A stretch of DNA of 64,000 nucleotides from Bacteroidota bacterium (GCA_016711505.1 JADJSV010000002.1:442839-506838), one strand, 5' to 3'. Shown: positions 1,692 to 47,326, numbered from the stretch's first letter. Notes: generated from the letters alone by a model not told the origin. Numbers and translations are program-made.

Positions 1692-1693
1692 TT

Positions 1694-1780: not shown

Positions 1781-1797
1781 TTTTAAATAGAAATCCA

Positions 1798-2860: not shown

Positions 2861-2900
2861 TTCTCAACAAATACTTTCCTTATACTTGTTGAATTCTTCT

Positions 2901-5003: not shown

Positions 5004-5046
5004 GATTCAAAGTATTTAAGGTACAATAAAATTCCAAATTCTTTCT

Positions 5047-5194: not shown

Positions 5195-5326
5195 AAAAAA
5201 CATACAGTATTTTAATTTCGCAAAGATCTTTATGTCCTTTCTTCGTATTCCGCAGAAAAAATTTTCTTCCAAATGGACCAAATGTTGAAACGAACTCAAA
5301 GGTTGCTGTAAATTGAATTGGAAGTA

Positions 5327-27820: not shown

Positions 27821-30800
27821 CTATCTGACAACAATTCTTGTTGTCTTTGTTACCACCTCATCAGCCGATAATGTAACCATATAAACTCCTTTGGTCACTC
27901 CGGTAATATCAAATTCTCTCGTGTTCATTCCGGTTTCAGAAGTGAATACTTCATTTGAAATGATGTTCCCAATAAGATCAGTGATCCTGATCAGATATTT
28001 CGTTTCAGTTTCTGAATTGAACGTTACAAGAATTTTTCCTGAAGTTGGATTTGGATATACTACTATTTCAGAGTCGGTGATCTCAATTTCATCGGCAACA
28101 GTCCGACACGACAGGTTCACTGCAACATTCAATTGTCCCGGTTGTGAAGGTCCGCATAAGCTGTTAGCATTTGCACGAATTATTGAAGAAGGATTCAGCG
28201 ATGTATTGTAATTGACTACTGCGCTTGTTCCCGAAGGTGAAATTGATGCGCCACCTGTAACTGACCATGAATACGAAGTCGCACCTGAAACCGGTGCAAT
28301 GTTATAAGCAACGGATGAATTTGTTTTACAGACAGACGTAGGGCCGCTGATCACAGGAGCCGCAGGACGTGATGTAATTGTGAAACACCGCGCAGGTCCT
28401 GTTCCACAGGCACTGTTTGCAGAAACGCAGATCGTTGACGAATTGGATGTGAATGCAGGCGTAAATCTGACGTTAATAGACAATCCGTTTGGTGCAGTAG
28501 AAAGAATCGTAACACCTGCCGGAACTGTCCAGTTATAAGACGTTGCCGTTGGTACCGGAGCAATTGAATATGTAACCTCTGATAGTCCGCAAACGCCGCT
28601 TCCCGGTCCTGATATCGATCCAGGTTGAGCAGGAGTAGAGTTCACAGCGAATGAACGCGAATACGAACCACAACTGTTTGCATCAGTAATAGTAACCATT
28701 CCTGAAGTCCATGCCGGACCAAAGTTGATGGTCGCTGTTGTAGTAGATGCAGTCGTAACTGTAGATGCAACTGTTGCATCACCTGTAACTGACCATGTAT
28801 AAGATGTTGCACCAACAACAGTATTCATTGTATAGACTCCTGTTCCGCCTGCACAGACAAACGTCGGACCTGTAACCGGATTAGAGTGAGCAGGGATACC
28901 TGTGATTGTCATACCGCGGACAGCACTTGATCCTTTACAGTTCACACTGCGAACTTGAATTGAACCTTGTCCGAAGTTCGAAGGAATGCTGACTTGTATC
29001 GTATTTGTTCCTTGTCCATTTACAATAGATGCACCTGTACCTGTTATTGTCCAGTTGAAACTTGTTGCATTAGGTGCAGAAGTGGAATACGTATGTATTC
29101 CCGGACCACATGGTAGTACCGGACCTGCAATTACAGCAGGAACCGGAGGCGCCACTGTGTTCACAGGAATGTTCAGACAAGATGTTGCAGAAGTGCCGCA
29201 AACATTTACAGCAGCTACACAAATAAATCCGTTAGCATATGCAGGACCAAAAGCTACAGTGATACTGTTTGAAGTTGAAGACCCTGTTGCTCCTGTAGGA
29301 AGTGTCCAGATATACGAAGATGCTCCCGGAACCGGTGTCACCGAATAAACAATTCCTGATGTACTTCGGCATGCACCTGCCGGACCGGAAATGGATCCCG
29401 GAACAATGATCGAACCACCTGTTGTGTTAACAACAGCACTGGTTGAAGCAGTACATCCCTGGCTATCTGTAACTGTAACTGAATAATTTCCACCCGTTAG
29501 ATTATTTGCTGTTTGAGTTGTCTGTCCATTTGACCATAGATAACTATAGCTACCCGAACCACCGCTTGCATTTGCTGTGGCTGAGCCATCGCTTGATGAA
29601 CATGATGAAGGTGTAGTCGTTGTTAGTACTTCAACTTTTGTTGGTTGAGTCAGTGTAAGTGAAATTTCAGATGCACATCCATTGGCATCAATAACAGTGT
29701 AAGCCATCGTACCCGCAAACTGCGCGAAAGTACCTGTGCCGCTGTATGGTGATGTACCGCCACTTGCTGTCACATCAACTAATGTTGAACCTCCGAAACA
29801 TGATATAGAAGTACTGTTCGAAGCAGCCGCAATTAATTGCGACGGTTCGGTTACAGTGATCATTGTAGATGTAGAACATCCGTTTGCATCAGTGAGAGTA
29901 TAGTTATACATGCCTGCACCAACATTGAAATCTCCCGTTCCTGAATATGGTTCAACACCACCGGAACCGGAAACAGAAATGGTAGTTTCACCACCATAAC
30001 ATGCGATAGCTGTTGCGGAAGAGGATGCAACAAACTGTGCAGGTTCAGTTATTGTGAGAGTAACTTCAGAAGTACAACCTTTTGCATCTGTTACAACAAA
30101 AGTTTGTGTTCCAGCCGTTACAGTATGAGCGCCATCGCCGGAGTAAGGCGATGTTCCACCACTTGCCGTGATGGTAACTGTTGTTGTGCCGCCATAACAA
30201 TTGATATTTCCCTGTGAAGTTGATAGAGTTAATGATTCATCTACCGTCAACACTCCCGGTTCATATACGAGAATATAATTGGCAGGAGTATCAGCTTGTA
30301 CCAGATCACTCGGAACGATCTGATAAGTTCCACCTGCAAGATTACCACTGCCAACATTCACATTCATGTTGTCAAGAATAGTAAATACCGGTCCGCTTGC
30401 AATCACGTTACTGTCTGCATCTTCGTATTGGTAGATGGAGTTGGTGAACGTGTAAGCCGGTTGAACACCGTTGCAACCTGCAGTGGTATCGTTTGCTTTT
30501 ACAGTAAGTGTTTCAGGAACGATCGTAAGTGTTCCTAGTCCGTAAGAGATGTCGAAGTTTTCCGATAACAATACACCCGGAGCGATCACCCAGTTTCCTA
30601 CTGTGATACCGGTGATCATGTTCATGGAAGTATAACCAACAATCGAATCATTCGGATCTCCATACACATCGAGTGAATCGACGATCAGTACAGCGTATTC
30701 GTTTGATTCATCGTTGAAGGTATTGCTGTTCACGGCTTGCTTTCCATTTACGGCTTGCTTACCATTCACTGCTTGTTTACCATTCACTGCTGCTTTACCA

Positions 30801-33800
30801 TTCACGGCTTGCTTACCGTTCACGGCTGCTTTACCATTCACGGCTTGCTTGCCATTGTATAGTACAGCATTGGTTGAATCGATATGGTAATCGAAGATCG
30901 ATGCCGGATGTACCGGAATGTAATAGGTCGTGTCGTAAGAGATACTGTTCACTGCTTGTTTTCCATTGACAGCTTGTTTACCGTTGACAGCCGCTTTTCC
31001 GCTGACAAGGAAACTCATGTTCTGGAAATCGGCAGCACTCAGTCCGTTGACGGCTTGTTTACCATCGACCAGTACAATTGAAGTTGACATGGCAGACTGA
31101 TGTTCTTCCGATAATGAATCATGGAATAAAAGTTGTTCGGAAGGATCAATGTTAGAATCATCGTAAACATATGTGAACTGAATATCTTTTCCATTGATGG
31201 CATCACCATAAACCAATGTCATATCGTTTGGTGTGACCATGATCGGCATTCTTTCAATAGTAAGAACACCATCCACAAACTGATAGTTGAAGATTGCAGA
31301 AAGCGCGAGTGACTGCGGATTGGAAAGATCCGTCACCGCAGAGTGACCGCGTCTGAAATATAAACCGATATCGGAAGTGTTGGTTGCATTGGTAGAGTAG
31401 GTAACGTCTGTCAAGCCAAGCGTAGATAAAGTTTGTCCTGTGCTTGCCATTGGAACATCGTTGATCGTAACATCAAAAGAATAAGCAGGAATGACCTCGC
31501 CATATTTTTTGTTAACGCTGTTGATGGTCACTTTTACGTTCTGCGGAATCGTGCTGAGTAAATAAATAGAATCACTTACTCCACCATCCAGACCACTTGG
31601 AGCGATCGGTGGATTGTAAACCACCAGTGGCGGGTTACCTAAGAAATCAGGAAGTTCCACAGTAAGTTGATTGCCGACCACTGTAGCCGGAATTGTATCG
31701 TATTGGAAGATGACCGAAGCATCAGGAGCAATGTATTCACCATTGATGACAAGCGTGATCGGTTGTAATCCCGGTGTGAATGCAGAATCTGCTAAATGAT
31801 AATCATCGATGATCGGGAACGGATTAGCAAATGTCTGCAGCGCAGCATCGGCCTGAATGAATCCTGCTCCTGTTGCTGCATCATATCCTGCACCATCCAT
31901 GTTGATGGCAGTCGATTTCAAGAGTGCTTTCATTTGTGCACCGTTGAATGTTTCGCCTGCATAATATTTTTCTTTGGCTTCAATCAAAAGAGCAGCCACA
32001 CCCGCAGCATGCGGAGCAGCAGCAGAAGTACCGAAGAAGTTAGGGAAAAGATCGTTGTCAATATTCACGCCGCCGAAATTCACAGTTGTATTCACGCCAT
32101 TCGGAGCGCAGAAGTCAGGCTTCTGTCTGTCGATACCATCGATAAGCACTCCACCTCGTGAAGAGAAGGAAGCTACTGTCGGAGGATTCACACCATAAAC
32201 AGGGGTATTAGTATACAACACTGCACCGATCGACATAGCGCTTTCAGCATTTGCCTGTCCGATGACAGTTGCTGTTCCCTGATTGTATTCATTGATCACA
32301 CCTTCACCACGGAAGATGACATATTTGAAACGAACATTGCCAACACCACTCTTGCGGGTGATAATGATGTTTGCTCGCGAAGTAACCTTCACAACTAATG
32401 GAAGGATCTCACGTGGATCACCATCGATGTTGTTACGATTGACGCCAAACCGACGTGCACCGAACTGATCGACCAGGAAGATGTCAGGGTCATTCTGAGC
32501 ACCAACGATCTCACCGATAGAATAGAAATCATCATTCCATTGCAGAGCGATCGTATAAGTTCCTTTTGGAAGTGTTACGCTTTGATAGAAATCACCACCA
32601 CCGAAATCGTGTGCAGCACCGGCATAACCGGCAGGGGCTGCGATAGGAGTGAAATTGCCTTCGTAGGATTTTATTCCGAAGTTACCTGCCGAAGTAAAGT
32701 AGTTCACACCTGTAGCAGAAACATCTTCCACAGCTTGTGCAATGACACCATCGCGGAAGAATGGTTCAGTGATGTAGGTGATGTCATCGACAATTACTTT
32801 ACATCCTGAATCACGAAGTGATTTGATGCCATCAGCAAAGTTGCCGGCACTGATGAAACCGGAACGGAACATCAGTTCAGCATTTGGAGCAACATCATGA
32901 ATGATCTGCAGCATGGCACGACCTTCATCAGATCCTGTTCCATAAGGATATTCTTCAGAAACAATTACGTCTGTGTTGAAATTCGGATTAGCAGCACCCG
33001 GAAGATCACCATTCTGAACATCACGTTCAGCAGGAGTAGGGCTACCGAATTTAGTATTGTAACTATCAGAAAGTACACCCACTTTTACACCATCACCGGA
33101 AACTTTCCAGGCTTGTTTGGCTTTGTGTGACATCTGAGCTGAATCACCTTGCGATGTTGTCAAACCGGTTGATGCCAGCGCAAAATTTCCATTGATTGGA
33201 GTGTAGTATGGCCGGGCATAATTTATCAAAATTGGCAATGAATCGAGCTTCGGTAAATTTGCGATCGGATACATTCCTGTTATGATCAGAGTAGTGTCGC
33301 CATTATCGATCAAACTATTCATGCCATAAGCAGGAGTTTGCAATAAAGCAAGAAGTGTATTGTACTGACCTACGTTTGCAATTACCTCGATCAATACTTC
33401 GCCCTGGATTTCATCTATCTTAAAGATATTATTCGCAGCAGTAGTATCGACGAGAGAATCAGGATATGAATACAATTGAGTCAACTCAGATCCGATCAGA
33501 TTATCGATCGTGTCATTCGTTGGTGGTTCATAATATGGAATGATACAATTTGTAACGAATACTTTCAGTTCTGTTGTCGCTGTACATCCATTACCATCAG
33601 TAACAAAATAATTGTATGTTCCGGTAACAAGGTTCAGAGTATCGCTTCCTGTATAAGTGTAAGGCGCAACACCATTCAACGGAACAAGATTTACATCACC
33701 ACTTGTTGCTCCGTTTTCTGCACAAACAAATAACGTATCGCCTGCAGATGTTGTAAGTGATAAATTACATACGAAAGAACAGTTAGTACTGAACGATGCA

Positions 33801-36800
33801 CCTGCATCTTTTCCTGCGCTCCAGAAAGTATTCATGTCGTTCACATTGTCAACCTGAATACATGAAAGTGAAGGATTTCCTGTTGCATTGAATGAAATCA
33901 GGTTTGAATTGTTTCCATTCTGGATATTCAAACTTGAAAGGTTGTTTTGATTTACAAGTAAGTCCGATAAGCTTGGAGTAGAGGAAAGATCAAGTTCAGT
34001 TAAATTATTATTTTGACTTATGAACTGCGTGATACCCGGATTCTGACTCATATCGATTGAAGTCAAGCCCGGATTGTTTGAAATGTTTAATGTCGATAAC
34101 AGTGGATTGTTCGTTACATCTAAACTTGTCAATTGATTACCCAGTGCAATAACAACAGTTAAGTTTGCATTATTTGTTAAGTCAAGTGATGTAATGTTAT
34201 TGAATGGACATTCAAGCCAGAATAAATTTGTATTTGAGCTGATGTCGATTGTCGTAAGCTGGTTAATTCTACATACTAATTGTTGAAGTGCAGTATTCGA
34301 AGAAACGTCTAATGTTGTTAGTTGATTACTTCCAACATCAAGATAATTCAACTGTGTATTTGCAGAAACATCAATTGTTGTTAACTGGTTATTATAAACC
34401 TGTAAAACCGTTAATGATGTGAAAGCTTCAATTCCGGTCAGATCTGAAATTGACAGGCCGTTTACATCCATATTACCGTTGAAAGCTAATGCTTCCGAGC
34501 ATTCAATTTCTAAATTGCTGTTTGTGTTGATGCTTGCATTTGCAAGCAAAGCATTTTTGAAGTTGACGTCAGGGATATTCACATAGCATACACAATTTGT
34601 TCCTGTAACAACTCCACCCGGAGAGACCCAGTTTGATGTCGCACCTTCAAGGTCAAAGTTGTTCAGTATTGCATTGTTGCCATTGCCGCTTACATCAGTA
34701 TCATTTATAACACTTACGTTACTTTCATTAGCAAAGCCTTGATTAAAATGAAAGGCAGCAGCTAATCCGGGTTGAGCACCGATCTCACAGTTCATATTGT
34801 CAACGATCTGCGATTGAGATCTGCTAACATTCCAGATTCTGACTTCATCTAATGCACCATCCAGAAATTCATTACCAAATGATTTTCCGATCTGAAGATT
34901 ATTTGCAGTCGGAACATTTAAAGTGCCCGGAGTATCTTGTCCGCGTAACACACCATCGGTATATATCGAACGTGTTGTACCATCGTACGTGGCAGCAATG
35001 TGATGCCAGTTACCATCAAGTATATTTGGAATCATCACTATAAGATCATTCGCCCACCAGTAATTAACCAGTTGTGTTGGTCCGGCAAATCTGATCGCAT
35101 TAGATTCATTCTGTGTTCCGAAGTTTCCATATCCTATGAATCCTTCGTTGAAGTTAATTGTATTTGGTTTGATCCATGCTTCAAGAGTATAAGGGCTGTT
35201 GCCGGTTGGAAGATTGTCGACTGTGTTTAATGAAACAAAATCATTAACTCCATCAAAATCCAGAGCAGCTGCCGGTGTACAACCTGAGTGAGTATTAATA
35301 TCTGAATCATCACAATCATTATAGTCATTCACAAGGTTTCCAGGTGCAAAGCAAGGAGATGTAACAACTATAGAGTTATTAGGGTCTCCAAAGCCATCAC
35401 CATCCAGATCATAATACATTGTACCTGCATAACCACCATTCCAGTTAGAAACGTTGAAGTCTCCTGAAAGTGAAAAAGAGATCAGTTGACCAATGTTATT
35501 GGTCGAAGTAAAATCAGTAAGAATGTTGACTCCTGGATTCTCGGTGTTAGCTGTACCGTGATCGAAAGGATAATAATTTATTAAATTCGGTTCATAATAG
35601 ACATAAGCAGTCATTTTGGATCTGATCTCTGCTTGTGTTTTTGCTACATCCCAGATACGTACCTCGTCCATTTTTCCGGAGTACCACTCAAGATTGAAAT
35701 CAGGCCATCCGCCTAGTCGGCCAACATTAAATCCTGATGTTAAATCTCTGGAGTAAGTGTCAGTTATGGATTCGTCAACTCTTCCATTTACATAGATCTT
35801 ATAATTCATCCCTGCTCTTACCACTGCAACATGTGTCCATTGATTGAGCGAGATTGAAGTTGTTCCGGAAACTACTAAATAACCAGGAGCTCCGGCTTCT
35901 GCAAGTTCTAGCATAAGATTTCCGGAATCAAATTTAAGTCCGAACCAATTCCCCGCACCACCAGATTCACTCGTTCTGTTTGTGATAATATATCCGTTAG
36001 TTGTTGCATATGGGTGAATCCATGCTTCAATAGTGAAATCATTTGTTCCAAGATTGAAGTCCTGCATTTCTACATAGCTGGTAGCACCATCAAATGAAAG
36101 TGAATTATTTTCACTGATATTTCCATTACAGTTTTGATCTGTTCCGTCGCAAATTTCAAGAGCACCGGGACCTTCACTGTAACTATTAGGGCTGCAATCA
36201 TTACTGAAAAATGAACTTCCACAAGGCGTAGCCGGCAGTACTCCAAAACCATCGTTATCATAATCATAATAAGTTGTATGAAGATCATCGCAATCCAGAT
36301 TATTAACTACATATCCCGGAACAGGAGCAACATCAATGATCTGACTTGCATTGTCTCCAAATCCATCACCATCAACATCTGCATAGAAAGTTCCCGGTAA
36401 ATTACAATTTGTACCTGTAACAACACCGCCACTGGTGATCCAGTTTGAAGTGTTTCCGTCAAGTGTAAAATTGAAAAGACTTCCATTCCCGTTGAGTGCC
36501 GCATCTGCTAACTGATCAATCATTGGTGTTGTGTTATCACTTTCTCCTATACCTTGATTGAAATGATAATTGGCCAACAAGTCTGATTGCGGTGCAAGAA
36601 TTTCACAAGCATAATGATCTGTAATTTCCTGGGCCGTTAATGCTCTTGACCAGATACGAAGTTCATCCATAGATCCCGGGTAGAATCCTGAAGTTCCTAA
36701 TCTAGATCCGACATATATTGAACTGCCAAGTCCACCGCCTATTGCAGTAACTGATGCCACAAATGCACCATTTACATAGATAGATTGTAAATTAGTTTGG

Positions 36801-38305
36801 TCGTCATAGGTACAAGCAATATGATTCCATGTGCCAAGAACCAATGGACCTGTTGATACAGAAGTGTTATCTCTCAGCCAAAATTCAAGATTCTCAGTTG
36901 ATCCTTCTAAACTAGGATCGGAAATTGAAGCAGCACTTTCCCATACAAAAGCATTTTGACTTGCATCAGCTTTCACCCAAACTTCAATTGTGAAAGAGCT
37001 TGTGCTAATTGTTGGAATCGCTACATAATCATCTATACCATCAAAGTGCAATGCAGAACCCGGACCGCCGGAAGTTAAATCACTGCCATTACAATCCTCA
37101 TCGATAGAGTTGTTTGGAATCTCTGTTGCACCCGGATTGATTAGAGGGTCATTGTCATTACAGTCTGCACTGCTTTCAGTATAACCTGGAGGTATAGTAC
37201 AAACGCTACCTACAAGAATAGAATTATTCAGATCTCCATAAGTATCTTCATCACCATCTGCATAATATGTCAGAAGTGTAATGGGTGTACATGAAGTTCC
37301 TGAAACAACTCCGCCAACTTCAACCCAATTTGATTCTGTTCCTGAAAGTGAACTGTTTTGAATTACACCATTACGATTATTTCCGGAAGCATCGTTTACA
37401 ATGTCTACTGAAGGATTGTTTGATCCGGCAATTCCTTGGTTCAATGGGTAGTATGCTACCAGACCCGGAGCGTTTGTCGGGATCTCGCAATTCATATTAG
37501 CACTTATTTCGGTCTCGCACAATGCACGATTCCAGATTCTGACTTCGTCAAGAGTTCCGTCTAATGCATATCCTGAATTGTCATTTCCAAGGATAAGATC
37601 GAATATTGTATCATTGACTGTTCCTGTATATGGCACTGTTGCTTCAAGAGCCCCATTGACATACAACTTCATGTCGAAGCCATCATATGTACCTGCAACA
37701 TGGTACCATTCTCCGGGAGTAATAGTAGTAGTTGAATTCGCATCATGCCATCCCCAGCCGTTTACAAAGAATGTAAAATTTGTACCGCCGCCACTTAAGT
37801 TTAATCCGTATCCATCTGCAAAAGAAGACGGTTCGGTTTTCATGATGATACCTGCATAGTCGTCAGCAGTTCTCGGCTTAACCCAACATTCAATTGTCAA
37901 TTCAGTTGGGTCTAAAGCGTCATCATCAGGAACAATTACAAGATCATCAACACCATCTAAACTTAAGGCAGCACCCGGTATTGGAGTCGCAGCTTCCCCG
38001 ATCTGAAAATCAGAGAATGATGTAAGTTGTCCTGCTGTGATCGATAAACTTGTTCTGTTGAACACCTGGAAATCTATCCAGTCAGGTGCATCATATTTTT
38101 TTACAATAAAGTTATTGAAGTCTGCATTCAGATCAACATCTGCAGCATCCCAGTTGAATGTAACAACTAAGTCCTGAAAATTCAGTCCTGCATTGGTAAG
38201 ATTCCAGAAACGGTTTACTGCTTTATTCGGGTCAATTCCTGAAGAAGCAATTTCCGGATGCACACCAGGCTCTGTACGTGCTATAATTCCACCATCAGGG
38301 AACAA
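27821..38305 (-). CDS. Giant gene 1, intact C-terminal 3494-codon ORF fragment
   Basis: Uninterrupted 10.5-kb ORF. Contains LamG domains (..LDEVRIWNRAL..), D-x-D-G-D-G-F-G repeats, LRRs, S8 motifs (GVLSDSY, DEGRAMLQIIHD, GTSAAAPHAAGVAALL), SprB repeats (CYGG..ASGGTSPYSG), PKD-like repeats and the T9SS tail. The TTG start at 38305 is an artefact of the upstream frameshift. Confidence 0.85.
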   Translation of the reverse strand: MFPDGGIIARTEPGVHPEIASSGIDPNKAVNRFWNLTNAGLNFQDLVVTFNWDAADVDLNADFNNFIVKKYDAPDWIDFQVFNRTSLSITAGQLTSFSDFQIGEAATPIPGAALSLDGVDDLVIVPDDDALDPTELTIECWVKPRTADDYAGIIMKTEPSSFADGYGLNLSGGGTNFTFFVNGWGWHDANSTTTITPGEWYHVAGTYDGFDMKLYVNGALEATVPYTGTVNDTIFDLILGNDNSGYALDGTLDEVRIWNRALCETEISANMNCEIPTNAPGLVAYYPLNQGIAGSNNPSVDIVNDASGNNRNGVIQNSSLSGTESNWVEVGGVVSGTSCTPITLLTYYADGDEDTYGDLNNSILVGSVCTIPPGYTESSADCNDNDPLINPGATEIPNNSIDEDCNGSDLTSGGPGSALHFDGIDDYVAIPTISTSSFTIEVWVKADASQNAFVWESAASISDPSLEGSTENLEFWLRDNTSVSTGPLVLGTWNHIACTYDDQTNLQSIYVNGAFVASVTAIGGGLGSSIYVGSRLGTSGFYPGSMDELRIWSRALTAQEITDHYACEILAPQSDLLANYHFNQGIGESDNTTPMIDQLADAALNGNGSLFNFTLDGNTSNWITSGGVVTGTNCNLPGTFYADVDGDGFGDNASQIIDVAPVPGYVVNNLDCDDLHTTYYDYDNDGFGVLPATPCGSSFFSNDCSPNSYSEGPGALEICDGTDQNCNGNISENNSLSFDGATSYVEMQDFNLGTNDFTIEAWIHPYATTNGYIITNRTSESGGAGNWFGLKFDSGNLMLELAEAGAPGYLVVSGTTSISLNQWTHVAVVRAGMNYKIYVNGRVDESITDTYSRDLTSGFNVGRLGGWPDFNLEWYSGKMDEVRIWDVAKTQAEIRSKMTAYVYYEPNLINYYPFDHGTANTENPGVNILTDFTSTNNIGQLISFSLSGDFNVSNWNGGYAGTMYYDLDGDGFGDPNNSIVVTSPCFAPGNLVNDYNDCDDSDINTHSGCTPAAALDFDGVNDFVSLNTVDNLPTGNSPYTLEAWIKPNTINFNEGFIGYGNFGTQNESNAIRFAGPTQLVNYWWANDLIVMIPNILDGNWHHIAATYDGTTRSIYTDGVLRGQDTPGTLNVPTANNLQIGKSFGNEFLDGALDEVRIWNVSRSQSQIVDNMNCEIGAQPGLAAAFHFNQGFANESNVSVINDTDVSGNGNNAILNNFDLEGATSNWVSPGGVVTGTNCVCYVNIPDVNFKNALLANASINTNSNLEIECSEALAFNGNMDVNGLSISDLTGIEAFTSLTVLQVYNNQLTTIDVSANTQLNYLDVGSNQLTTLDVSSNTALQQLVCRINQLTTIDISSNTNLFWLECPFNNITSLDLTNNANLTVVIALGNQLTSLDVTNNPLLSTLNISNNPGLTSIDMSQNPGITQFISQNNNLTELDLSSTPSLSDLLVNQNNLSSLNIQNGNNSNLISFNATGNPSLSCIQVDNVNDMNTFWSAGKDAGASFSTNCSFVCNLSLTTSAGDTLFVCAENGATSGDVNLVPLNGVAPYTYTGSDTLNLVTGTYNYFVTDGNGCTATTELKVFVTNCIIPYYEPPTNDTIDNLIGSELTQLYSYPDSLVDTTAANNIFKIDEIQGEVLIEVIANVGQYNTLLALLQTPAYGMNSLIDNGDTTLIITGMYPIANLPKLDSLPILINYARPYYTPINGNFALASTGLTTSQGDSAQMSHKAKQAWKVSGDGVKVGVLSDSYNTKFGSPTPAERDVQNGDLPGAANPNFNTDVIVSEEYPYGTGSDEGRAMLQIIHDVAPNAELMFRSGFISAGNFADGIKSLRDSGCKVIVDDITYITEPFFRDGVIAQAVEDVSATGVNYFTSAGNFGIKSYEGNFTPIAAPAGYAGAAHDFGGGDFYQSVTLPKGTYTIALQWNDDFYSIGEIVGAQNDPDIFLVDQFGARRFGVNRNNIDGDPREILPLVVKVTSRANIIITRKSGVGNVRFKYVIFRGEGVINEYNQGTATVIGQANAESAMSIGAVLYTNTPVYGVNPPTVASFSSRGGVLIDGIDRQKPDFCAPNGVNTTVNFGGVNIDNDLFPNFFGTSAAAPHAAGVAALLIEAKEKYYAGETFNGAQMKALLKSTAINMDGAGYDAATGAGFIQADAALQTFANPFPIIDDYHLADSAFTPGLQPITLVINGEYIAPDASVIFQYDTIPATVVGNQLTVELPDFLGNPPLVVYNPPIAPSGLDGGVSDSIYLLSTIPQNVKVTINSVNKKYGEVIPAYSFDVTINDVPMASTGQTLSTLGLTDVTYSTNATNTSDIGLYFRRGHSAVTDLSNPQSLALSAIFNYQFVDGVLTIERMPIMVTPNDMTLVYGDAINGKDIQFTYVYDDSNIDPSEQLLFHDSLSEEHQSAMSTSIVLVDGKQAVNGLSAADFQNMSFLVSGKAAVNGKQAVNGKQAVNSISYDTTYYIPVHPASIFDYHIDSTNAVLYNGKQAVNGKAAVNGKQAVNGKAAVNGKQAVNGKQAVNGKQAVNSNTFNDESNEYAVLIVDSLDVYGDPNDSIVGYTSMNMITGITVGNWVIAPGVLLSENFDISYGLGTLTIVPETLTVKANDTTAGCNGVQPAYTFTNSIYQYEDADSNVIASGPVFTILDNMNVNVGSGNLAGGTYQIVPSDLVQADTPANYILVYEPGVLTVDESLTLSTSQGNINCYGGTTTVTITASGGTSPYSGDGAHTVTAGTQTFVVTDAKGCTSEVTLTITEPAQFVASSSATAIACYGGETTISVSGSGGVEPYSGTGDFNVGAGMYNYTLTDANGCSTSTMITVTEPSQLIAAASNSTSISCFGGSTLVDVTASGGTSPYSGTGTFAQFAGTMAYTVIDANGCASEISLTLTQPTKVEVLTTTTPSSCSSSDGSATANASGGSGSYSYLWSNGQTTQTANNLTGGNYSVTVTDSQGCTASTSAVVNTTGGSIIVPGSISGPAGACRSTSGIVYSVTPVPGASSYIWTLPTGATGSSTSNSITVAFGPAYANGFICVAAVNVCGTSATSCLNIPVNTVAPPVPAVIAGPVLPCGPGIHTYSTSAPNATSFNWTITGTGASIVNGQGTNTIQVSIPSNFGQGSIQVRSVNCKGSSAVRGMTITGIPAHSNPVTGPTFVCAGGTGVYTMNTVVGATSYTWSVTGDATVASTVTTASTTTATINFGPAWTSGMVTITDANSCGSYSRSFAVNSTPAQPGSISGPGSGVCGLSEVTYSIAPVPTATSYNWTVPAGVTILSTAPNGLSINVRFTPAFTSNSSTICVSANSACGTGPARCFTITSRPAAPVISGPTSVCKTNSSVAYNIAPVSGATSYSWSVTGGASISPSGTSAVVNYNTSLNPSSIIRANANSLCGPSQPGQLNVAVNLSCRTVADEIEITDSEIVVYPNPTSGKILVTFNSETETKYLIRITDLIGNIISNEVFTSETGMNTREFDITGVTKGVYMVTLSADEVVTKTTRIVVR
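30728..30856. repeat. Seven tandem 18-bp units encoding NGK(Q/A)AV inside giant gene 1
   Basis: The plus strand shows ..GTTCACGGCTTGCTTTCCATTTACGGCTTGCTTACCATTCACTGCTTGTTTACC.. with synonymous variation between units. The protein reads YNGKQAVNGKAAVNGKQAVNGKAAVNGKQAVNGKQAVNGKQAVNS. A second, shorter cluster lies at about 30945-31075. Confidence 0.85.
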
Positions 38306-38404
38306 TCACCTGTACATTTAAAGATACAGGTGCATATTGTGTTGCATCACCGATTGGATAATCTTTTACTCCTGTTGAAGTAAAGTCTCTTTGTAAATTT
38401 CCAA

Positions 38405-40234
38405 CTACGTAAGAAGTTGAAGATGCATTGTGATGGTAGCAGAAGCACCAATAATTACATTGCTGAGATTTGTGATCAGCTTACCATTATTAAAATTAAG
38501 GTCTTGATTAATTGTTTGTGTTCCCTGAATAACGACGTCAAATGGATTGAGAATAGTCAACTTTTCAATTGAGCCTTGACCGAAAATGGTTTGCTGAAGA
38601 CTTCCTGTCATAGAAAGATCTGTAAATTCAATTGATCCTCCATTAGTCAGATTCAAGCCACTGAATGTCATGTCGCCTCCTGTTAATGTCGCAAGTGGAT
38701 CTACAATCAATTCATTTGCATTGATAACAGTTTGAATATTGAAAGTTCCATTCTTAAAGACAAGCATTCCGCTGGCCATTGATAGGAATGATGAGCCCCC
38801 AAATGTAAGGGTGCCCGGAGTAGCAAAAGTAAATAACCCATTATTGTCAGGACAATAGAATGTTCCATTGAATGTATTATCCCAGCCGGTCGCAACATTT
38901 ACAATTCCAAAATTATTATTGAATGTACCGTCATTTGTAAATACAGATAGATTTAAAATAGTGTTTAGAGTTGACCCTGTAGCATTGAATGTGTGATTGA
39001 CAGTTCCTGTTGAAGTATTGTTCAGATTAAAGTTATTGATAGTTACCTGATCTATACCATCGTGAAACAAAAAGTTCACGATATTGTTATTGATCATTTC
39101 TCCTGCCATATTATATTCAATCAATGCGCAGCAAGAAACGTCAGAGTTTTCAATATTTATTACACCGTTATTTGTAACAGACAAAAATAAGTTTGCTCCA
39201 TTGGCAGTATTATTTCCTAAGTTTAAAGTTGCATCACTGTTAATTATCATCAAACCTTGACCGGTCAATGTGCCATTTTCAACTATAACAGTTCCGGAAA
39301 CATCAAGATCAGTACCTGGTCCGTCAGCAATCACAATTCCTGGTCCTGTTACATGTAATGTTGCACCGGTTTGAACAACGATTTGATCTGCGGTAATTCC
39401 ACCATCAACCGTAACCGTAAATCCACTTTGAAGAGTGATAGTATTGTCCCCATAATTCGGAGTACTTAAAGCAGGTTGCCAAGTACAGCCATCAAAATAT
39501 TCCCAGGTAGAAAGAGCGCCCCAATTGCCACTGGCAATTGAACGAAAATCACCTGTTGGAATACATGCTTCAAAGTTTTCTCCGATCTGAAATTCACTGA
39601 AGGATGTGATGTTAAAGGCAGTCAGAGATGTTTCTGTTATGTTACCTACTGTAGGAAGTGTCCAGGTTGGATCATTGTATTTTGCAACGATAAAATTGTT
39701 GAAGTTAGTGCTGCCATCAACTTCAGCAAGGTCCCATGAGAAATTAACATCACATGTATTAAAACTTAAACTGTGATTAGTTATGTTCCAGACACGGTTC
39801 ACACTTAACGCCTGGTCAATTCCTGAATTGAGAATGTCGGCATGGTCTCCTGCTGTTGTATGTGCATTAATAAATCCGTCACCACTACCGTCATTTGGAA
39901 GATCGAATGTCAGTGCGATAGGTGCGTAAGCATTTTCATCACCAATAGGTAATTGTACTGGACCCGGAGTTGCATATGCAAAATGGTGCCGTAGATTACC
40001 ATTGACATATGAATTCACAGATGGATCCATAATAACAGCACCAGGCCCAAGAATCAATGTGTTCGGACCGGTATTAATTAATCCAACACCCATATTCAAA
40101 GTATTTACAATGGTCTGATTTCCATCAAGTGTTACTCCGGATTCATTATAGATAGACATATTTGCAATACTTCCTGATCCAAGAATAGTCTGTTGTCCAA
40201 GTGATGTAAAAGAAAATCTTGCCAGTTGAATCAA
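38405..40234 (-). CDS. Giant gene 1 fragment (third W-rich / beta-helix module)
   Basis: ..GDFRSIASGNWGALSTWEYFDGCTWQPALSTP.. followed by N/G/T-rich beta-helix-like repeats. Colinear with the paralogue. Confidence 0.7.
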   Translation of the reverse strand: MIQLARFSFTSLGQQTILGSGSIANMSIYNESGVTLDGNQTIVNTLNMGVGLINTGPNTLILGPGAVIMDPSVNSYVNGNLRHHFAYATPGPVQLPIGDENAYAPIALTFDLPNDGSGDGFINAHTTAGDHADILNSGIDQALSVNRVWNITNHSLSFNTCDVNFSWDLAEVDGSTNFNNFIVAKYNDPTWTLPTVGNITETSLTAFNITSFSEFQIGENFEACIPTGDFRSIASGNWGALSTWEYFDGCTWQPALSTPNYGDNTITLQSGFTVTVDGGITADQIVVQTGATLHVTGPGIVIADGPGTDLDVSGTVIVENGTLTGQGLMIINSDATLNLGNNTANGANLFLSVTNNGVINIENSDVSCCALIEYNMAGEMINNNIVNFLFHDGIDQVTINNFNLNNTSTGTVNHTFNATGSTLNTILNLSVFTNDGTFNNNFGIVNVATGWDNTFNGTFYCPDNNGLFTFATPGTLTFGGSSFLSMASGMLVFKNGTFNIQTVINANELIVDPLATLTGGDMTFSGLNLTNGGSIEFTDLSMTGSLQQTIFGQGSIEKLTILNPFDVVIQGTQTINQDLNFNNGKLITNLSNVIIGASATITMHLQLLT

Positions 40235-40245
40235 TCCATTATTTT

Positions 40246-41304
40246 CTAATGTACTTCCGTAAAATTCAATTCTGCAAGTCCATTCAATTCTGCATCGGAA
40301 TAAATCCGATATGTACCTGAATGTGTGCCAAAAGAATTTCCTAGTCTGAGTTCTGAAGCTGATTGAAGTTCTACAACACCAAGATTGTTAAATTGCATTT
40401 CTTCATCATAGATCAATCCATCGATTCCAGTATCAATCCATATAGTACCGGAAGGCATGTTATTAAACTGGGAGTTGGAACTAATCGAACCCAGGAAACT
40501 TGTTGAAGCATTAAAATATAAGTTGTCGTAATTGTTGAAAAAAGTATTAGCTCCTCCGAAGGTAATGGTTGCATTTGAGTTCCAGGTTATCGGTGTGTAA
40601 TTATTAATAGTCAATCCGTCATTAAACGAATAACTTCCACTCGACATTTCTATAGTAGAACCTGGCAGGAAGTCAATAATTCCCGGTCCATAAATATCAC
40701 TACCTAAAAGAAAAGTACTTCCATCTTCGAATTGTGCATTTCCAAGTATATTAAAGGTAGCAGCTGAGAACTCAATTGTACCGGAACATTGTAAATCTAT
40801 TCCGGCTCCATCAGCAATGGTAAATTCCATTTCTGTTACCAATAAACTACTGCCTGGATTAATTATTAGTTGGTCAACTACAAGAGGCGAAGTATTTCCA
40901 GGTACCATATAATGGTCGGTAATTGTAATTTGTTCAGCATTTGATGCTACCGGATAATCAATAGCAGGTACCCAGGAATTTCCGTCAAATGTTTCCCAGT
41001 TGGAAATATCGTCCCACGCGCCATCACTCACAGTTCTATAGTCATTTACTGCATACGAAGCTACTTCTCCTACCTGATAGAATCTATCTGCAAAAGTAGT
41101 AACACCGGAAACATCAATTGAAGTTGGTTGTGGGTTAGAAGATGTTGCAATGCTCCAAATACTGGCATCACTGTAATAAGAACCTACTCCAAAATTTGAA
41201 GTAATTGCATCAAGATCAACATCAGTTGCATCCCAGTTTAATGTAAAATCAGCAGTAGAAAATATCTGATTCGCACTCTGATCAATTGACCAACAACGAT
41301 TCAC
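40246..41304 (-). CDS. Giant gene 1 fragment (second module)
   Basis: ..NDYRTVSDGAWDDISNWETFDGNSWVPAIDYP... Its end ..ELNFT joins GSTLENNGLIQLARFSF.. of the next fragment after a 1-nt correction at 40257-40258. Confidence 0.7.
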   Translation of the reverse strand: MNRCWSIDQSANQIFSTADFTLNWDATDVDLDAITSNFGVGSYYSDASIWSIATSSNPQPTSIDVSGVTTFADRFYQVGEVASYAVNDYRTVSDGAWDDISNWETFDGNSWVPAIDYPVASNAEQITITDHYMVPGNTSPLVVDQLIINPGSSLLVTEMEFTIADGAGIDLQCSGTIEFSAATFNILGNAQFEDGSTFLLGSDIYGPGIIDFLPGSTIEMSSGSYSFNDGLTINNYTPITWNSNATITFGGANTFFNNYDNLYFNASTSFLGSISSNSQFNNMPSGTIWIDTGIDGLIYDEEMQFNNLGVVELQSASELRLGNSFGTHSGTYRIYSDAELNGLAELNFTEVH

Positions 41305-41401
41305 ACTTAAATCACTTATAATACTTGATGTTCCAACTTGCGGATGATCATTTCCCAGGAATGGATACGGAATTCATCACCAAGAAGTAAACCATTTATA
41401 G

Positions 41402-41641
41402 TTAATGATACCGAGTGTAAACGTTGTCGTCACCAACAGGAAAATTTAATGTAGTTGTACCTGCAGGGAAACTTCTTTGGATAAAACCATTTACATAGCT
41501 ACTTGAAGAACCTGAAGAAATATTACCGGTTGATAAGATGCTTATTGTATGAGCAAATGTTCTGATCTTTCCTGTTGTCAATGTAAGAAGTCCGTTGAAA
41601 CTTTGAGACCCACCTAATGTAATTCCCACTCGGATTAGCAA
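41402..41641 (-). CDS. Giant gene 1 fragment (short bridging piece)
   Basis: ..ITLGGSQSFNGLLTLTTGKIRTF..SSSYVNGFIQRSFPAGTTTLNFPVGDDNVYT.. bridges 41523-42599 and 40246-41304. Confidence 0.6.
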   Translation of the reverse strand: MLIRVGITLGGSQSFNGLLTLTTGKIRTFAHTISILSTGNISSGSSSSYVNGFIQRSFPAGTTTLNFPVGDDNVYTRYH

Positions 41642-42599
41642 CAGTCATATTTAAAATTGATCCATTACCATTAATTGTTTGGTTAGAAGCACCGACAACT
41701 TGAAGATTGGTAGTATTTAATGTACCATTGTTTGTGAGTGTCGGACCGGAGAAAGAAATATTGTTTGCTGTCAACGTTGCACTATTATTCACAACTAAAG
41801 TACCGCCCACATTACAGTTTCCGGTTAATGATAAAGTTCCTGCGGATACTGTCATCGCTGATCCTGTATTCGTGTAAACGCTAACAAAGCTATCGAAAGT
41901 AGATGTGCTTGTAGTGGATTTAGTAATGCTTCCCCCTGTATTATTCCAGAATGTAAATGTCGCAGAAGGATCACCATTGAAATGTAGAAAAGAAGGAGCA
42001 GATAAATTGAATGCACCATTGTTTTGAAGTGTGATAGTACCACCATTATATGCAATATTGTTTGCTGTCCCCGGCCATGTCATTGTACCATTGTTGGTGA
42101 AAGTATGAGTACCTGAAAGAAACATACTACCTGTACCTGTCCAATTGAAATTTCCACCGATATTATTTGTCCAGTCACCATTGCCTGTAATTGTGCCTGA
42201 ATTAAAATTAAAGACTCCGCCACTGGTAATTGATACAGTTCCTCCTGAGCCATTGCTCAGTGTTGGCCCGCTTAAATTACATGTCCCTATGATCGTAAGT
42301 GAATTTCCTACACCCCCATTCAGAGTCAGAGAACCGGAACCGGATACTGTTAAAGTTCCGCCTGAATTAACCACTGTATTATCTGTAGTTACATTGGAAT
42401 TGATAGTAACTGTGTGAGTGCTTAGAATTGTAATTGTGCTATCTGAAAAAGATGGTGATGTAATAGCGCCTATCCATCCGCAAGCTGTGAGTGTTTGCCA
42501 TATCGCCGGATTACTCCAGGAACCTGAACCCGCTGTACGATAGGTATATGTTGCACCCATAGCATAAGAACGAACCCAGTTAGAAGTTGTCCCACTCAA
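41523..42599 (-). CDS. Giant gene 1 fragment (first module)
   Basis: ..GTTSNWVRSYAMGATYTYRTAGSGSWSNPAIWQTLTACGWIGAITSP.. parallels paralogue ..GTTSNWVNSIVFQPTNIYRTITSGNWSDPAIWETQYGSCWVPAVTAP... Confidence 0.7.
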   Translation of the reverse strand: MSGTTSNWVRSYAMGATYTYRTAGSGSWSNPAIWQTLTACGWIGAITSPSFSDSTITILSTHTVTINSNVTTDNTVVNSGGTLTVSGSGSLTLNGGVGNSLTIIGTCNLSGPTLSNGSGGTVSITSGGVFNFNSGTITGNGDWTNNIGGNFNWTGTGSMFLSGTHTFTNNGTMTWPGTANNIAYNGGTITLQNNGAFNLSAPSFLHFNGDPSATFTFWNNTGGSITKSTTSTSTFDSFVSVYTNTGSAMTVSAGTLSLTGNCNVGGTLVVNNSATLTANNISFSGPTLTNNGTLNTTNLQVVGASNQTINGNGSILNMTVANPSGNYIRWVSKFQRTSYIDNRKDQNICSYNKHLINR

Positions 42600-42637
42600 T
42601 GCAAATCCGTTTAACGTACCGTTGTAGGCGTTACTGC

Positions 42638-43198
42638 TCAGATCAAGAAGTGTTGTAAGACCCGGATTATTTTGATCTGCAATTCCTGATTGAATGGATA
42701 CATTACTACTAAGCCTGTTTGTGGAGTTATCTCACAATTCATGTTTCCTTGTATCTGAACTTGTGAACGTGATACATTCCATATCCGTAATTCATCTAAA
42801 GTTACTGCAGTATATCCTTGTAAAATATTATTCATCAATCCCGCACCGATTGAAGTCAAAGACATAGGTTGTGGACCAAGTCCGGTTGTACCTGTGCCAT
42901 CAGAAATTCCATCCAGATAAAAAGTAACGGCGTTTCCTGATTTTGTAACTGCAACATGATGCCAGTTACCATCATTAACGTTAGTATTGCCGGTGAGCTG
43001 ATGTAGTGATATACCATCACCAACAGCAAGTCGTAACTTTCCGGTGTTTAGTGCAAACTGCACATAATTGTTATTTATTGCTTCCCCATACAAAGATGGT
43101 TGCGTTTCCATCAGTTGTCTGAATCCAGGTTTCGATTGTAAAGGTTCCGGAATAAGGGACGACTGTGTTAGTAGAAACATAATCGTTTGTACCATCAA
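42638..43198 (-). CDS. Giant gene 1 fragment (N-terminal LamG domain, C-part)
   Basis: ..EAINNNYVQFALNTGKLRLAVGDG..NWHHVAVTKSGNAVTFYLDG..LDELRIWNVSRSQVQIQGNMNCEI... Confidence 0.7.
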   Translation of the reverse strand: MMVQTIMFLLTQSSLIPEPLQSKPGFRQLMETQPSLYGEAINNNYVQFALNTGKLRLAVGDGISLHQLTGNTNVNDGNWHHVAVTKSGNAVTFYLDGISDGTGTTGLGPQPMSLTSIGAGLMNNILQGYTAVTLDELRIWNVSRSQVQIQGNMNCEITPQTGLVVMYPFNQELQIKIIRVLQHFLI

Positions 43199-43310
43199 AA
43201 TGCAATGCGTTTGAACCTTGCGCTTTTAATTCTGATGCGAAAGAAAATGTTAAAATAAAAAGTGTGGACAATACAAAATTTGCCCAATTGAATGGTGTGG
43301 GGTTTTTCAT
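43071..43310 (-). CDS. Giant gene 1 fragment (signal peptide and start of LamG domain)
   Basis: MKNPTPFNWANFVLSTLFILTFSFASELKAQGSNALHFDGTNDYVSTNTVVPYSGTFTIETWIQ.. closely parallels the N-terminus of the 58242 gene. Confidence 0.75.
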   Translation of the reverse strand: MKNPTPFNWANFVLSTLFILTFSFASELKAQGSNALHFDGTNDYVSTNTVVPYSGTFTIETWIQTTDGNATIFVWGSNK

Positions 43311-43665
43311 GTGTGTTTCAGTGTGTATTGGTTTGCAAATTAAGAAATTGCTGAGTCATATTAAAATTTTATCGGTAAACTGACGAGTATTTTTTTTTCT
43401 ATTTTTTCATAGATAAAAATGCTCGAAAATGCAGCAAAATCAATAGATTTAAGACTTGACAGGAATTAATTCCAAAGATTAATGCATTAACCCGGTTAAT
43501 TTCTTCGAATTCCTGGTTATTTGCTTGGTAAAACGCGCAAAAATGAATGTTAATAATTAATTAATTTTGTTCTTAATTTCTGATTCGATGGCAGGATTTT
43601 TTAAATGTGGAAATTCTGTTTTTGTGAACGTCTGAATTTAGAATAAAAACAACTACTTTGTAAAA

Positions 43666-44644
43666 ATGAAAATCATCACCTTCTTTGTTTCACTTCTGCT
43701 TATTTTGAATTTCAGCTCTCTTCTTTTGAAAGCTGAAGAGATTTCAACGCCTGATACTGTCAATGTCGGATTATACATTACAAGTATTCATGACATAGAT
43801 TTCCGGCAGAAAGAATATTCCGTGAATCTGTGGCTATGGCTAAAATATAAGAACAGAGATTTTGATTTCATGAAAAATCTTGAAGTACCAATGGCAAAGT
43901 CTGTCGAAAAATCGTATGCAACTGTCGATACACTTGAAGATGGCCGGATCTATTTGCTGATGAAACTTCAATGTGTGATGAAAGGAACGTGGAAGATAAA
44001 TGATTTCCCATTCGACAGACAAAAATTACGATTTGCAATTGAGAATTCTATGTACGATTCTAAAGCATTGGTGTTTTCTGAAGATACTGTTGGGAAACAT
44101 TATGGTAAATATTTTTAATGGGATGGGAGAAAGACAGTTTCAATATTAAAACAGAAATGAAACGATATGAAACTGCTTTCGGTGACCCTAGAACTTGATA
44201 AACCGGAATCAGAGTACAGTAGTTATAAAGCTACAATTGTTGTCCATAGAAATTCATGGGAAATGTTTTTCAAGATATTTTTAGGAATGTATATCTCGTT
44301 TCTCATCTCCACGATATGCTTTTTGTCCACCTGACAATATGGAATCACGACTGGCTTTAAGTGTTGGTTCTTTGTTTGCTGTAATCGGTAACAAGTATAT
44401 AATTGATTCTTCACTTCCGGAATCCAATACGTTTACAATGGTCGATACACTGCATGGACTGACATTGCTTTATATTTTTCTTGTGATCGCATCTTCTGTT
44501 TATACGCTACGGCTTGTTCGTGCAGGATTTGAACACCGTTCTGAAAAACAAAACCGGTTGATGGGGTGGATGTTATTACTTTTTTATGTAGCGTTGAATA
44601 TATGGGTTATCCTGCAATCATATAATACGATTGCAACTGGATAA
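43666..44644 (+). pseudogene. Prokaryotic pentameric ligand-gated ion channel (Cys-loop receptor family) homologue, three frameshifts
   Basis: Signal peptide. Ligand-binding domain ..VNVGLYITSIHDIDFRQKEYSVNLWLWLKYKN.. with the loop motif ..INDFPFDRQKLRF... Then, in other frames, ..LMGWEKDSFNIKTEMKRYETAFGD.. and ..LELDKPESEYSSYKATIVVHRNSWEMFFKIFLGMYISFLISTICF.. (M1). Then ..PPDNMESRLALSVGSLFAVIGNKY.. (M2), M3 and M4. Shift sites: T5 44112-44116, C3 44186-44188, T5 44320-44324. Confidence 0.7.
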
Positions 44645-44692
44645 AAAATATGAGACAACTTATTTCCTGCATTGTTTAATTTATTATTGAAA

Positions 44693-45600
44693 ATGAAACA
44701 GATCGTATTTTTTATTTTATTGTCGTTTGCTTCCGTATCGAAGGCAAACATCCATTTACCATCCTTTTCCGGACTCAAATGCTTATTGGAATATTATAGT
44801 TGAAGTGTATTGTGCACCGATGAATAGCCATGTATTTGATCATCACTCTGTCGAAATCGGAGGTGATACACTTATCGGTGGAATTCAGTATCATACTTTT
44901 CAGGTACCATTCATTCAATCTGGAAGCAATGGCGTTTGTCCCTACTATCAGAGTGGATATAAAGGTGCGTTTCGTCAGGATACAACTTTAAGGAAAGTTT
45001 ATATTATATCTCCCGGTGATTCTCTGGAGCAAATATTATACGATTTTAGTCTTAATGTTGGTGATACTGTATCAGGATATCTGGTAAGAGATTTACCGAC
45101 AGTCGAAACGGTTATTAGTATTGATTCAATAATTATAGGAGGAAGTTACAGGAAGAGATGGCTGATTAATTCAATATATCCACTTTATATGACGGAAGGT
45201 GTAGGGTGGCATTACGGTTTAATTGTTCAATCACCAGGAATATTGCTAGACGCAACAAACATAAATATGACATGCTTTACACAAAATGGAATTGTTCTTT
45301 TTAATAATGGGTTTCCGGTGTGTGACCTGATTGATCAAGTTGAAAGAAATAATCAGGAACAAACAATTTTTGAGTTACCCAAATCCTGCAACATCAACGA
45401 CTAAGGTAAAATTGCCTTTATCTTTTGTCAATGGAAGATTTGAAGTTTATGATATTAATGGCAAATTAATTGAAGATTGCAGTGTTGGTGAGAACGTGGA
45501 TTTTGAATTTGATGTTACATCATTCCGGAAAGGAATTTATTTTATGAAATTTTATTCTGTTGAAGGGAAAAATACTTCGTTAAAATTAATTAAGGAGTAA
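44693..45600 (+). pseudogene. Small T9SS cargo protein, unknown function, two frameshifts
   Basis: ATG 44693 gives signal peptide MKQIVFFILLSFASVSKA. The frame changes at T4 44765-44768 (..ANIHLPSF|PDSNAYWNII..) and again at about 45340-45400, leading into the tail ..FLSYPNPATSTTKVKL..GIYFMKFYSVEGKNTSLKLIKE. Confidence 0.6.
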
Positions 45601-45855
45601 TTATAGAATCACATGTAATTGAATTTTTTCAGAATAGCAGTTAATTATACCTGATTTCTTACAGTTTACAATTATCAATTCTGCAATTGGGTTCTATTTA
45701 TTTATGAAATTGATTAAGAAAAATGGAAAATCATAGTTTTTACTGTACTGAAAGTTACTATTGATTACAGAAATGACTTTTAGTCAATCAAAAGTTGTTG
45801 AACTTTTGTTAGTGGAGTAGTATTAAATTGTGAATAAACACACTAAATCCACACA

Positions 45856-47225: not shown

Positions 47226-47254
47226 TTTCGGAATATTAATATAAAAAAAGGCCC

Positions 47255-47300
47255 TTAAGAAGTTGGGGTGTAGTCTGCAGACTACACCCCAACTTCTTAA
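47255..47300. terminator. Perfect 46-nt palindrome between convergent genes (bidirectional terminator candidate)
   Basis: TTAAGAAGTTGGGGTGTAGTCTGCAGACTACACCCCAACTTCTTAA. It is flanked by AAAAAAAGGCCC and a partly complementary GCCTTTC. Confidence 0.7.
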
Positions 47301-47326
47301 TGCCTTTCAATAAGTGATCTTGATTG

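Follow-up and report, generated by a model that had tools for sequence, protein, structure and literature searches.

Type IX secretion systems (T9SS) export cargo that ranges from small proteins up to adhesins of several hundred kDa, SprB being an example (PMC10202324). PorV serves cargo with a type A C-terminal domain (CTD), such as RemA; SprB, whose CTD is of type B, depends on SprF (PMC10202324). Here we analyse 64,000 nucleotides of DNA from a Bacteroidota bacterium (GCA_016711505.1, JADJSV010000002.1:442839-506838), referred to below as the window, with a focus on the minus-strand region 27821-43310, which is broken into seven open reading frames (ORFs). We found that this region is a single gene, the target, for a predicted T9SS cargo protein of 5,164 residues. 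Its breaks lie in a local patch of small indels that are probably consensus errors.

The closest described systems share parts of this protein. RemA, a lectin-type adhesin of Flavobacterium johnsoniae, represents a class of cargo with a Sec signal, a long array of binding domains and a PF18962/TIGR04183 sorting domain; the target also has the array and the sorting domain, together with a putative Sec signal. Unlike cargo of the RemA class, the target is much larger (5,164 aa), contains an S8 protease, a leucine-rich-repeat (LRR) block and three uncharacterised ~500-aa modules, and is known from sequence alone. Like SprB, the gliding adhesin of F. johnsoniae, it would be a T9SS-secreted surface protein of several hundred kDa, and it has SprB repeats. 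However, the target carries a type A CTD and has no adjacent sprF-like gene (the downstream ORF, 27042-27452, has no Pfam match), and is therefore not a SprB orthologue. Mirolase of Tannerella forsythia (8ehe) is, like the target, a subtilase among the predicted or known T9SS cargo, and it is the best solved-structure match around the catalytic Ser. In contrast to mirolase, which stands alone, the S8 domain of the target is embedded in a 5,164-aa protein, and only its Ser-containing C-terminal part aligns.

Seven open reading frames form a single gene

A first-pass annotation of the window had proposed that seven minus-strand ORFs within 27821-43310 descend from one ancestral gene of ~5,160 codons, restorable by small indel corrections. 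All seven ORFs are present. Reading the junctions in three frames gave the path 2>1>2>1>2>0>1>2>1, that is eight frame changes, at ~43081-43087, 42686, 41622, 41413, 41354-41364, 40257, 38429 and 38300. When the eight single-base edits proposed earlier were applied and translated, an open frame of 5,163 codons was obtained, while repair guided by orthologues gave 5,164 codons and zero stops. One Laminin_G_3 domain is cut by the first junction (J1), with profile positions 1-38 in ORF1 and 41-151 in ORF2 (Pfam). Since the two halves of this domain lie on either side of J1, a chance origin is excluded.

Homologues without interruption led to the same result. With the repaired N-terminal 1,777 residues as query, we identified P0001 (2,967 aa), which aligns uninterrupted at 51% identity over 100% of the query. 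Its 90% cluster includes P0121 (3,210 aa) and P0122 (4,375 aa, running off its contig), the latter being an uninterrupted orthologue of the target encoded on contig L005. Together with L001 and L004, L005 is conspecific with the window, as DNA identity amounts to 95-99.5% on either side of a divergent middle section (beyond position 10950 of L005, the comparison was made at the protein level only). A more distant metagenome-assembled genome (MAG), L002 (Bacteroidota LOS_Bin005), contains a single open frame of more than 5,122 codons that runs colinear with the repaired product; the two share 50% identity in their N-terminal part and 75-81% elsewhere. The equivalents of all eight junctions align without gaps in P0001 and the L002 ORF, and no interruption was present at any of them in P0001, P0122 or the L002 frame. 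That is, both the repair and the uninterrupted homologues confirm one ancestral gene; the reassembly is sound, and the one-gene finding is correct but ordinary. The gene and its junctions are as follows, all on the minus strand:

27821..43310, minus strand: whole gene; after repair of eight indels 5,164 aa, from signal peptide to type A T9SS CTD
43081..43087, minus strand: J1, 2-bp deletion relative to L001 and L005, GGAAGTGCA to GGAAGCA, frame 2>1
42685..42686, minus strand: J2, 1-bp deletion, GGG to GG, frame 1>2
41622..41624, minus strand: J3, inferred 1-bp insertion, GG to GGG, frame 2>1
41412..41414, minus strand: J4, inferred 1-bp deletion, CC to C, frame 1>2; repaired reading YT/PVSL (slash, junction)
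41354..41364, minus strand: J5, inferred 1-bp deletion, best placed in the G-run 41354-41356, frame 2>0; repaired reading FRIHSW/GNDHPQ
40257..40258, minus strand: J6, inferred 1-bp deletion, GGG to GG, frame 0>1
38428..38429, minus strand: J7, 1-bp deletion relative to L001 and L004, AAA to AA, frame 1>2
38298..38300, minus strand: J8, 1-bp insertion relative to L001 and L004, CC to CCC, frame 2>1

Every junction peptide quoted in the first-pass annotation reads through as given there, and six of its eight placements stand. Alignment to P0001 and L002 (for J1 also to L001 and L005) showed that the other two, J1 and J5, were slightly off. J1 had been described as an extra G in a run of four, with the peptide VW/EAINN. 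Where the window reads GGAAGCAATA, L001 and L005 both read GGAAGTGCAATA, so that the lesion is a loss of 2 bp and VWGSAINN is the true peptide. J5 had been placed at 41363-41364 (RI/PFLGN), about 10 nt from the best fit, which lies downstream in the G-run 41354-41356; with the lost G restored there, the product reads FRIHSWGNDHPQ, compared with FRVRSWGTDHPQ in the orthologues. J3 falls within the variable cassette described below, for which the matches found contain no near-identical reference sequence. At five of the eight sites a G-run is followed by an A-run, an observation from which we draw no conclusion.

Domains of the repaired protein

Pfam analysis of the repaired product confirmed the domain order that had been proposed: signal peptide, LamG, three modules, four LamG/MopE units, LRR, S8, MBG, SprB, PKD and T9SS tail. 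The families Laminin_G_3 (one N-terminal copy plus four), Cu-binding_MopE, LRR_4, Peptidase_S8, MBG_2, SprB, PKD_6 (five copies) and Por_Secre_tail were all found, distributed as follows:

43218..43310, minus strand: putative N-terminal Sec-type signal peptide MKNPTPFNWANFVLSTLFILTFSFASELKAQ (sequence inspection; orthologues use the same start)
42669..43214, minus strand: LamG domain 1, split by J1 (Pfam)
37991..42554, minus strand: three ~500-aa all-beta modules (42554-41062, 41052-39575 and 39559-37991)
34601..37975, minus strand: four LamG domains alternating with Cys-rich MopE-type (DxDGDGF) repeats (Pfam)
33791..34594, minus strand: leucine-rich-repeat block (LRR_4)
31772..33163, minus strand: subtilase (S8) domain, Ser motif GTSAAAP beginning at 32032
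30230..31603, minus strand: MBG_2 domains with tandem (NGKQAV)n hexapeptide arrays (Pfam MBG_2)
28121..30229, minus strand: SprB repeats, then five PKD_6 domains (Pfam)
27824..28060, minus strand: type A T9SS C-terminal sorting domain (PF18962 and TIGR04183)

The signal peptide was recognized by inspection only: it begins with MK, continues with the hydrophobic core FVLSTLFILTFSFA and then LKA/Q, and repair is needed to bring it into frame with the CTD. When the longest ORF (3,494 aa) was scanned whole with Pfam, Peptidase_S8 and MBG_2 were missed and LRR_4 stayed below its cutoff, whereas scans of sub-sequences recovered all three, with 64 bits for Peptidase_S8 (PF00082, cutoff 21.8, profile positions 157-288), 37.9 bits for LRR_4 (cutoff 27) and 38.3 bits for MBG_2 (cutoff 25). 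The SprB repeats (PF13573) scored 36.4 bits against a cutoff of 28, and Por_Secre_tail (PF18962) 44.1 against 27. An NCBIfam scan of the last 559 aa matched the type A CTD model TIGR04183 (39.1 bits, cutoff 23) and no type B CTD model.

Alignment of the S8 domain to solved subtilases covers the Ser motif GTSAAAP, and among these structures the T9SS protease mirolase (8ehe) matches best. Across 16 family members, little or no variation occurs at the candidate Asp (VLSDS), His (IIHDVAP) and oxyanion Asn (SAGN), and an insertion of ~150 aa separates the oxyanion Asn from the Ser.

A W-rich motif opens each of the three N-terminal ~500-aa modules, a long beta-rich stretch follows, and the C-terminal part is an FN3-like sandwich. 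Pfam and NCBIfam scans assigned them to no family, and a module profile matched only titin FN3 domains, over its C-terminal ~55 positions. The modules had been labelled beta-helix, a label that is only weakly supported: an AlphaFold2 model is all-beta (predicted local distance difference test score 74), but its comparison with the PDB gave no significant match, the weak top matches being beta-helix tailspikes and autotransporter passengers.

Predicted function

The domain content suggests a route and a role for this protein. A Sec signal peptide would carry it to the periplasm, and passage through the T9SS, directed by the type A CTD, would bring it to the cell surface. Judging from domain homology only, its role there would be multivalent binding, with a subtilisin-type protease on the same protein. 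The binding parts would be the five lectin-like LamG domains, the three ~500-aa modules with their FN3-like ends, the LRR block and the MBG, SprB and PKD repeats. A role in surface binding and proteolysis is thus likely. The host itself very likely possesses a T9SS, as six other ORFs in the window encode T9SS tails (Por_Secre_tail); no core T9SS gene was found within the window. Besides genes B and C of the patch described below, four tail-bearing ORFs lie at 5327-6823, 20796-23573, 23663-24430 and 60140-62281; a CotH-kinase/lamin-tail/PKD protein is among their products, as is a GEVED-domain protein. T9SS cargo is thus densely represented in the window.

The combination of lectin-like, LRR and protease parts behind one T9SS signal had been called unusual, which our searches contradict. 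At E<=1e-20, 1,350 homologues of the S8 segment were found, mostly from Bacteroidota and most of them named 'S8 family serine peptidase'. Many are partial pieces of large proteins in which the same fragment also contains MBG_2, PKD_6, HYR, LamG or Por_Secre_tail. This set of homologues with its co-occurring domains shows that the combination is common in Bacteroidota. Thus, the target is a further member of a class already abundant in this phylum, that of very large T9SS surface proteins in which binding domains are combined with a subtilase.

Frame-breaking indels cluster in a 9.6-kb patch

The breaks had been treated as a property of the target gene. This does not hold, since breaks of the same kind occur in four neighbouring genes, and the reading accordingly shifts from a broken giant gene to a locally poor consensus. 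We compared the window with the intact conspecific contig L005 over 48003-42397, and every gene in this stretch is frame-broken in the window. The patch and its genes, with the positions and sizes of the indels in bp, are:

38299..47878: 9.6-kb patch with all 16 frame-breaking indels, five consecutive genes affected
27821-43310, minus strand: target, eight indels in the patch, J1 and J2 within the stretch compared with L005
43654-44644, plus strand: gene A, 326 aa in relatives, weak Neur_chan_LBD match; 44331, 44324 and 44116 (-1 each), 44190 (+1)
44709-45600, plus strand: gene B, T9SS-tail protein of 302 aa; 45372 (+1), 44744 (-2)
45847-47225, plus strand: gene C, T9SS-tail protein, 456 aa in L005; 46479 (-1)
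47327-58242, minus strand: paralogue of the target; 47878 (-1)

All coding lesions in the patch measure 1-2 nt and most are changes in homopolymer length. The intergenic DNA of the patch contributes seven further indel events, and coding and intergenic events together are all 1-3 nt in size. Both adjoining open frames, 27821-38298 (10.5 kb) and 47879-58242 (10.4 kb), are colinear with their orthologues and contain no frame-breaking indel. Outside the patch, no split gene was found within the window by open-frame overlaps and Pfam, small overlapping ORFs included, and the remaining window genes with Pfam matches have full-length domains. Given 32.9 kb in which breaks could be judged, the chance that 16 independent events fall into one given 9.6-kb interval is (9.58/32.9)^16, or ~3e-9.

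Within the patch, the intergenic and promoter segments next to the giant gene (43311-43653 and 45601-45846) are far more diverged from the conspecifics than the adjacent coding DNA; between 43766 and 43467, for example, there are 42 mismatches in 300 nt.

Origin of the indels

The distribution of the indels and the selection acting on the affected genes both suggest that the patch is technical rather than biological, that is, a local accumulation of consensus errors, and we consider this probable. A gene inactivated at its 5' end should evolve neutrally along its whole length, so that eight indels in the first 5 kb of the target predict ~17 in its last 10.5 kb; none was seen. In the patch genes, with the cassette edge left out, the substitutions relative to L005 comprise 48 synonymous and 20 non-synonymous changes (71% synonymous; 22:5 in gene A and 9:1 in gene C) and no nonsense change, and the frames are free of stops once repaired. 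The patch genes show no sign of relaxed selection.

Other assemblies of the species are broken elsewhere or not at all. All five patch genes are intact in L005 wherever the sites could be tested, and L001 shows no break at J1, J2, J7 and J8. L004, in turn, carries ~37 indels within a 5.3-kb part of the paralogue that is open in the window, five in the part of the target that is likewise open there, and a split TPR-cyclase gene. With L005 intact and L004 broken at other sites, the breaks in this species differ from one assembly to the next. By its IPN61_ locus tags and its JADKBE accession, L004 presumably belongs to a large long-read set of activated-sludge MAGs; if so, its state would be explained. 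At 1-5980 and 19582-29633 of L004, the paralogue lies in ~12 pieces and the target in 6, all at positions that differ from those in the window.

The lesions themselves are of mixed type. Over 44366-44067, four gap columns stand against a single mismatch, so that indels rival substitutions in near-identical stretches. Of the 12 indels with a reference for comparison, five are not plain changes in run length: those at 47878 and 46479 have an adjacent substitution, those at 45372 and 44190 are single-base insertions outside a run, and J1 removed two different bases. A substitution beside an indel is produced by noisy-read consensus and not by simple slippage. Under-polished long-read sequence, or low coverage over a strain-specific segment, would leave small indels at homopolymers. 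Low effective coverage may be the local cause here, as the cassette allele differs from that in three other assemblies; being strain-specific, it could be polished only by reads from the same strain. Homopolymer indels are a known residual error of nanopore assemblies that lack adequate short-read polishing (PMC9262707). Like such errors, the lesions of the patch are 1-2-nt indels, mostly at short homopolymers, that break ORFs irrespective of gene borders. Unlike them, they are confined to one 9.6-kb patch instead of being spread along the contig.

Several observations weigh against this interpretation. Over the whole patch, the coding ratio of indels to substitutions is ~1:9, which is compatible with neutral DNA; since it reaches 1:1 only in near-identical sub-stretches, we rested the argument on distribution and selection. 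Homopolymers and deletions are also favoured by real slippage. The cassette allele contains four of the eight junctions (J3-J6), whose intact state was deduced only from homologues of 49-65% identity, and no near-identical sequence for this allele was found in protein, genome and metagenome searches. Exact look-ups of two window proteins, the 79-aa first fragment and the 639-aa cyclase, gave no match. As for function, the Asp and His of the S8 triad were assigned only from invariant alignment columns, and the surface role depends on domain homology. With these points included, we assign a probability of roughly 78% to the joint explanation that the target is one giant T9SS cargo gene whose breaks are technical and whose function is the one its domains suggest.

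Genuine decay is the most serious alternative, although an unlikely one. A real pseudogene tract of 9.6 kb, degenerating by small indels, would then take in the giant gene's 5' third, the paralogue's 3' end and the three small genes between them. The sequence as given does contain frame-disrupting indels, eight of them in the target, and the excess of deletions over insertions (12 to 4 among the 16) is that of natural decay. The divergent cassette allele in the segment points to an unusual history of the locus in this strain, and an element with a putative tyrosine recombinase appears to interrupt the gene in L001, so natural loss is possible. However, decay should not stop abruptly inside two genes and leave the remaining 10.5 kb of a 'dead' gene without a lesion. 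Nor does it fit zero nonsense mutations alongside 71% synonymous substitutions, lesions of 1-2 nt throughout with no larger deletion and no insertion sequence element, or a different and equally dense set of breaks in another assembly of the species (L004). If the 16 indels were instead real but simultaneous, they would represent a burst of frameshift mutagenesis, a mutation shower, caused by error-prone repair or by the recombination that imported the divergent cassette. The patch edge at 38299 is close to the downstream boundary of the cassette (~38150), and losses of one base at short G or A runs make up most of the changes. Yet the patch extends 5 kb past the cassette on one side only, the event must have inactivated five genes at once and still been retained, and 1.7 indels per kb is, to our knowledge, far above any break-associated mutagenesis. 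We regard such a burst as very improbable.

It is hardly credible, too, that the indels are real and the 3,494-codon ORF (27821-38305) is expressed alone as a shorter protein. This long uninterrupted frame does end in a T9SS tail, but it has no signal peptide, and without Sec export the tail would be useless; moreover, its listed start is a TTG inside module 3, a module that is continuous in the orthologues. The frame changes might also be functional, as programmed ribosomal frameshifts or as phase-variable tracts that switch the adhesin, given that surface proteins are often phase-variable and several shifts lie in short homopolymers. Here, eight shifts in both directions would each need decoding, the tracts of 2-4 nt are far shorter than contingency tracts, slippery heptamers are absent, and the same shifts affect unrelated neighbouring genes and intergenic DNA. 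The orthologues carry no shifts at these sites, and their intact frames effectively refute functional frame changes.

A patch of consensus errors has direct consequences for annotation. Gene calls at 38.3-47.9 kb of this assembly are untrustworthy: annotation would turn the five patch genes into fragments or pseudogenes and would overlook two giant T9SS proteins or give them the wrong size. Useful outputs of the analysis are therefore the corrected gene model, the warning on 38.3-47.9 kb and the hypervariable module cassette.

A strain-variable module cassette

Between ~42490 and 38150, the otherwise near-identical conspecifics fall to 66-70% DNA identity with the window or cannot be aligned. 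This cassette comprises ~4 kb and three modules in the window, and 5.6 kb and four modules in L001, L004 and L005. Corresponding modules share 49-65% protein identity, while the flanks are 98.8-99.3% identical. The modules of L002, a different species, are 89-93% identical to those of P0001; as the L002 allele is thus close to the four-module type, the allele of the window is the outlier. The genome scan returned L002 (58%) and L003 (30%), and a metagenome scan with a 609-aa cassette fragment found only a relative at 30% identity. The cassette is a genuine hypervariable allele, reflecting real divergence rather than error, and is the most interesting feature of the locus. The window allele was probably either brought in by recombination or kept as an old polymorphism.

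Allelic replacement in the exposed parts of surface proteins is a familiar theme. Wider interest attaches only to the N-terminal module block, which is swapped between near-identical strains for a highly divergent allele, as one would expect of a surface structure that phages, predators or substrate range put under diversifying pressure.

In L001, the giant gene is also cut after the third LamG/MopE unit (L001 10248-11945, corresponding to window position 36110). The sequence beyond the cut contains several tandem repeats of ~150 nt, followed by an ORF resembling a tyrosine recombinase/integrase, and looks like a mobile element that inserted into the giant gene.

The paralogue and its shared repeats

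The paralogue at 47327-58242 had served as an intact template for the target. It is itself frameshifted: the 1-bp deletion at 47878 moves its last PKD_6 domain and the Por_Secre_tail into a separate ORF (47327-47929). Once repaired, the paralogue (minus strand) would have a length of ~3,640 aa. The fragments of the target had been said to follow its domain order; we found the two to be colinear at the N-terminus (~50% identity) and over the C-terminal ~1,900 residues (69%), but only there. The paralogue has one LamG domain compared with five in the target, and the alignment leaves the LRR block uncovered.

Both giant genes contain tandem 18-nt repeats in the MBG region that encode the (NGKQAV)n arrays, at 30729-30856 and 30954-30991 in the target and at 50492-50626 and 50723-50765 in the paralogue. 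These arrays are likely sites of length variation.

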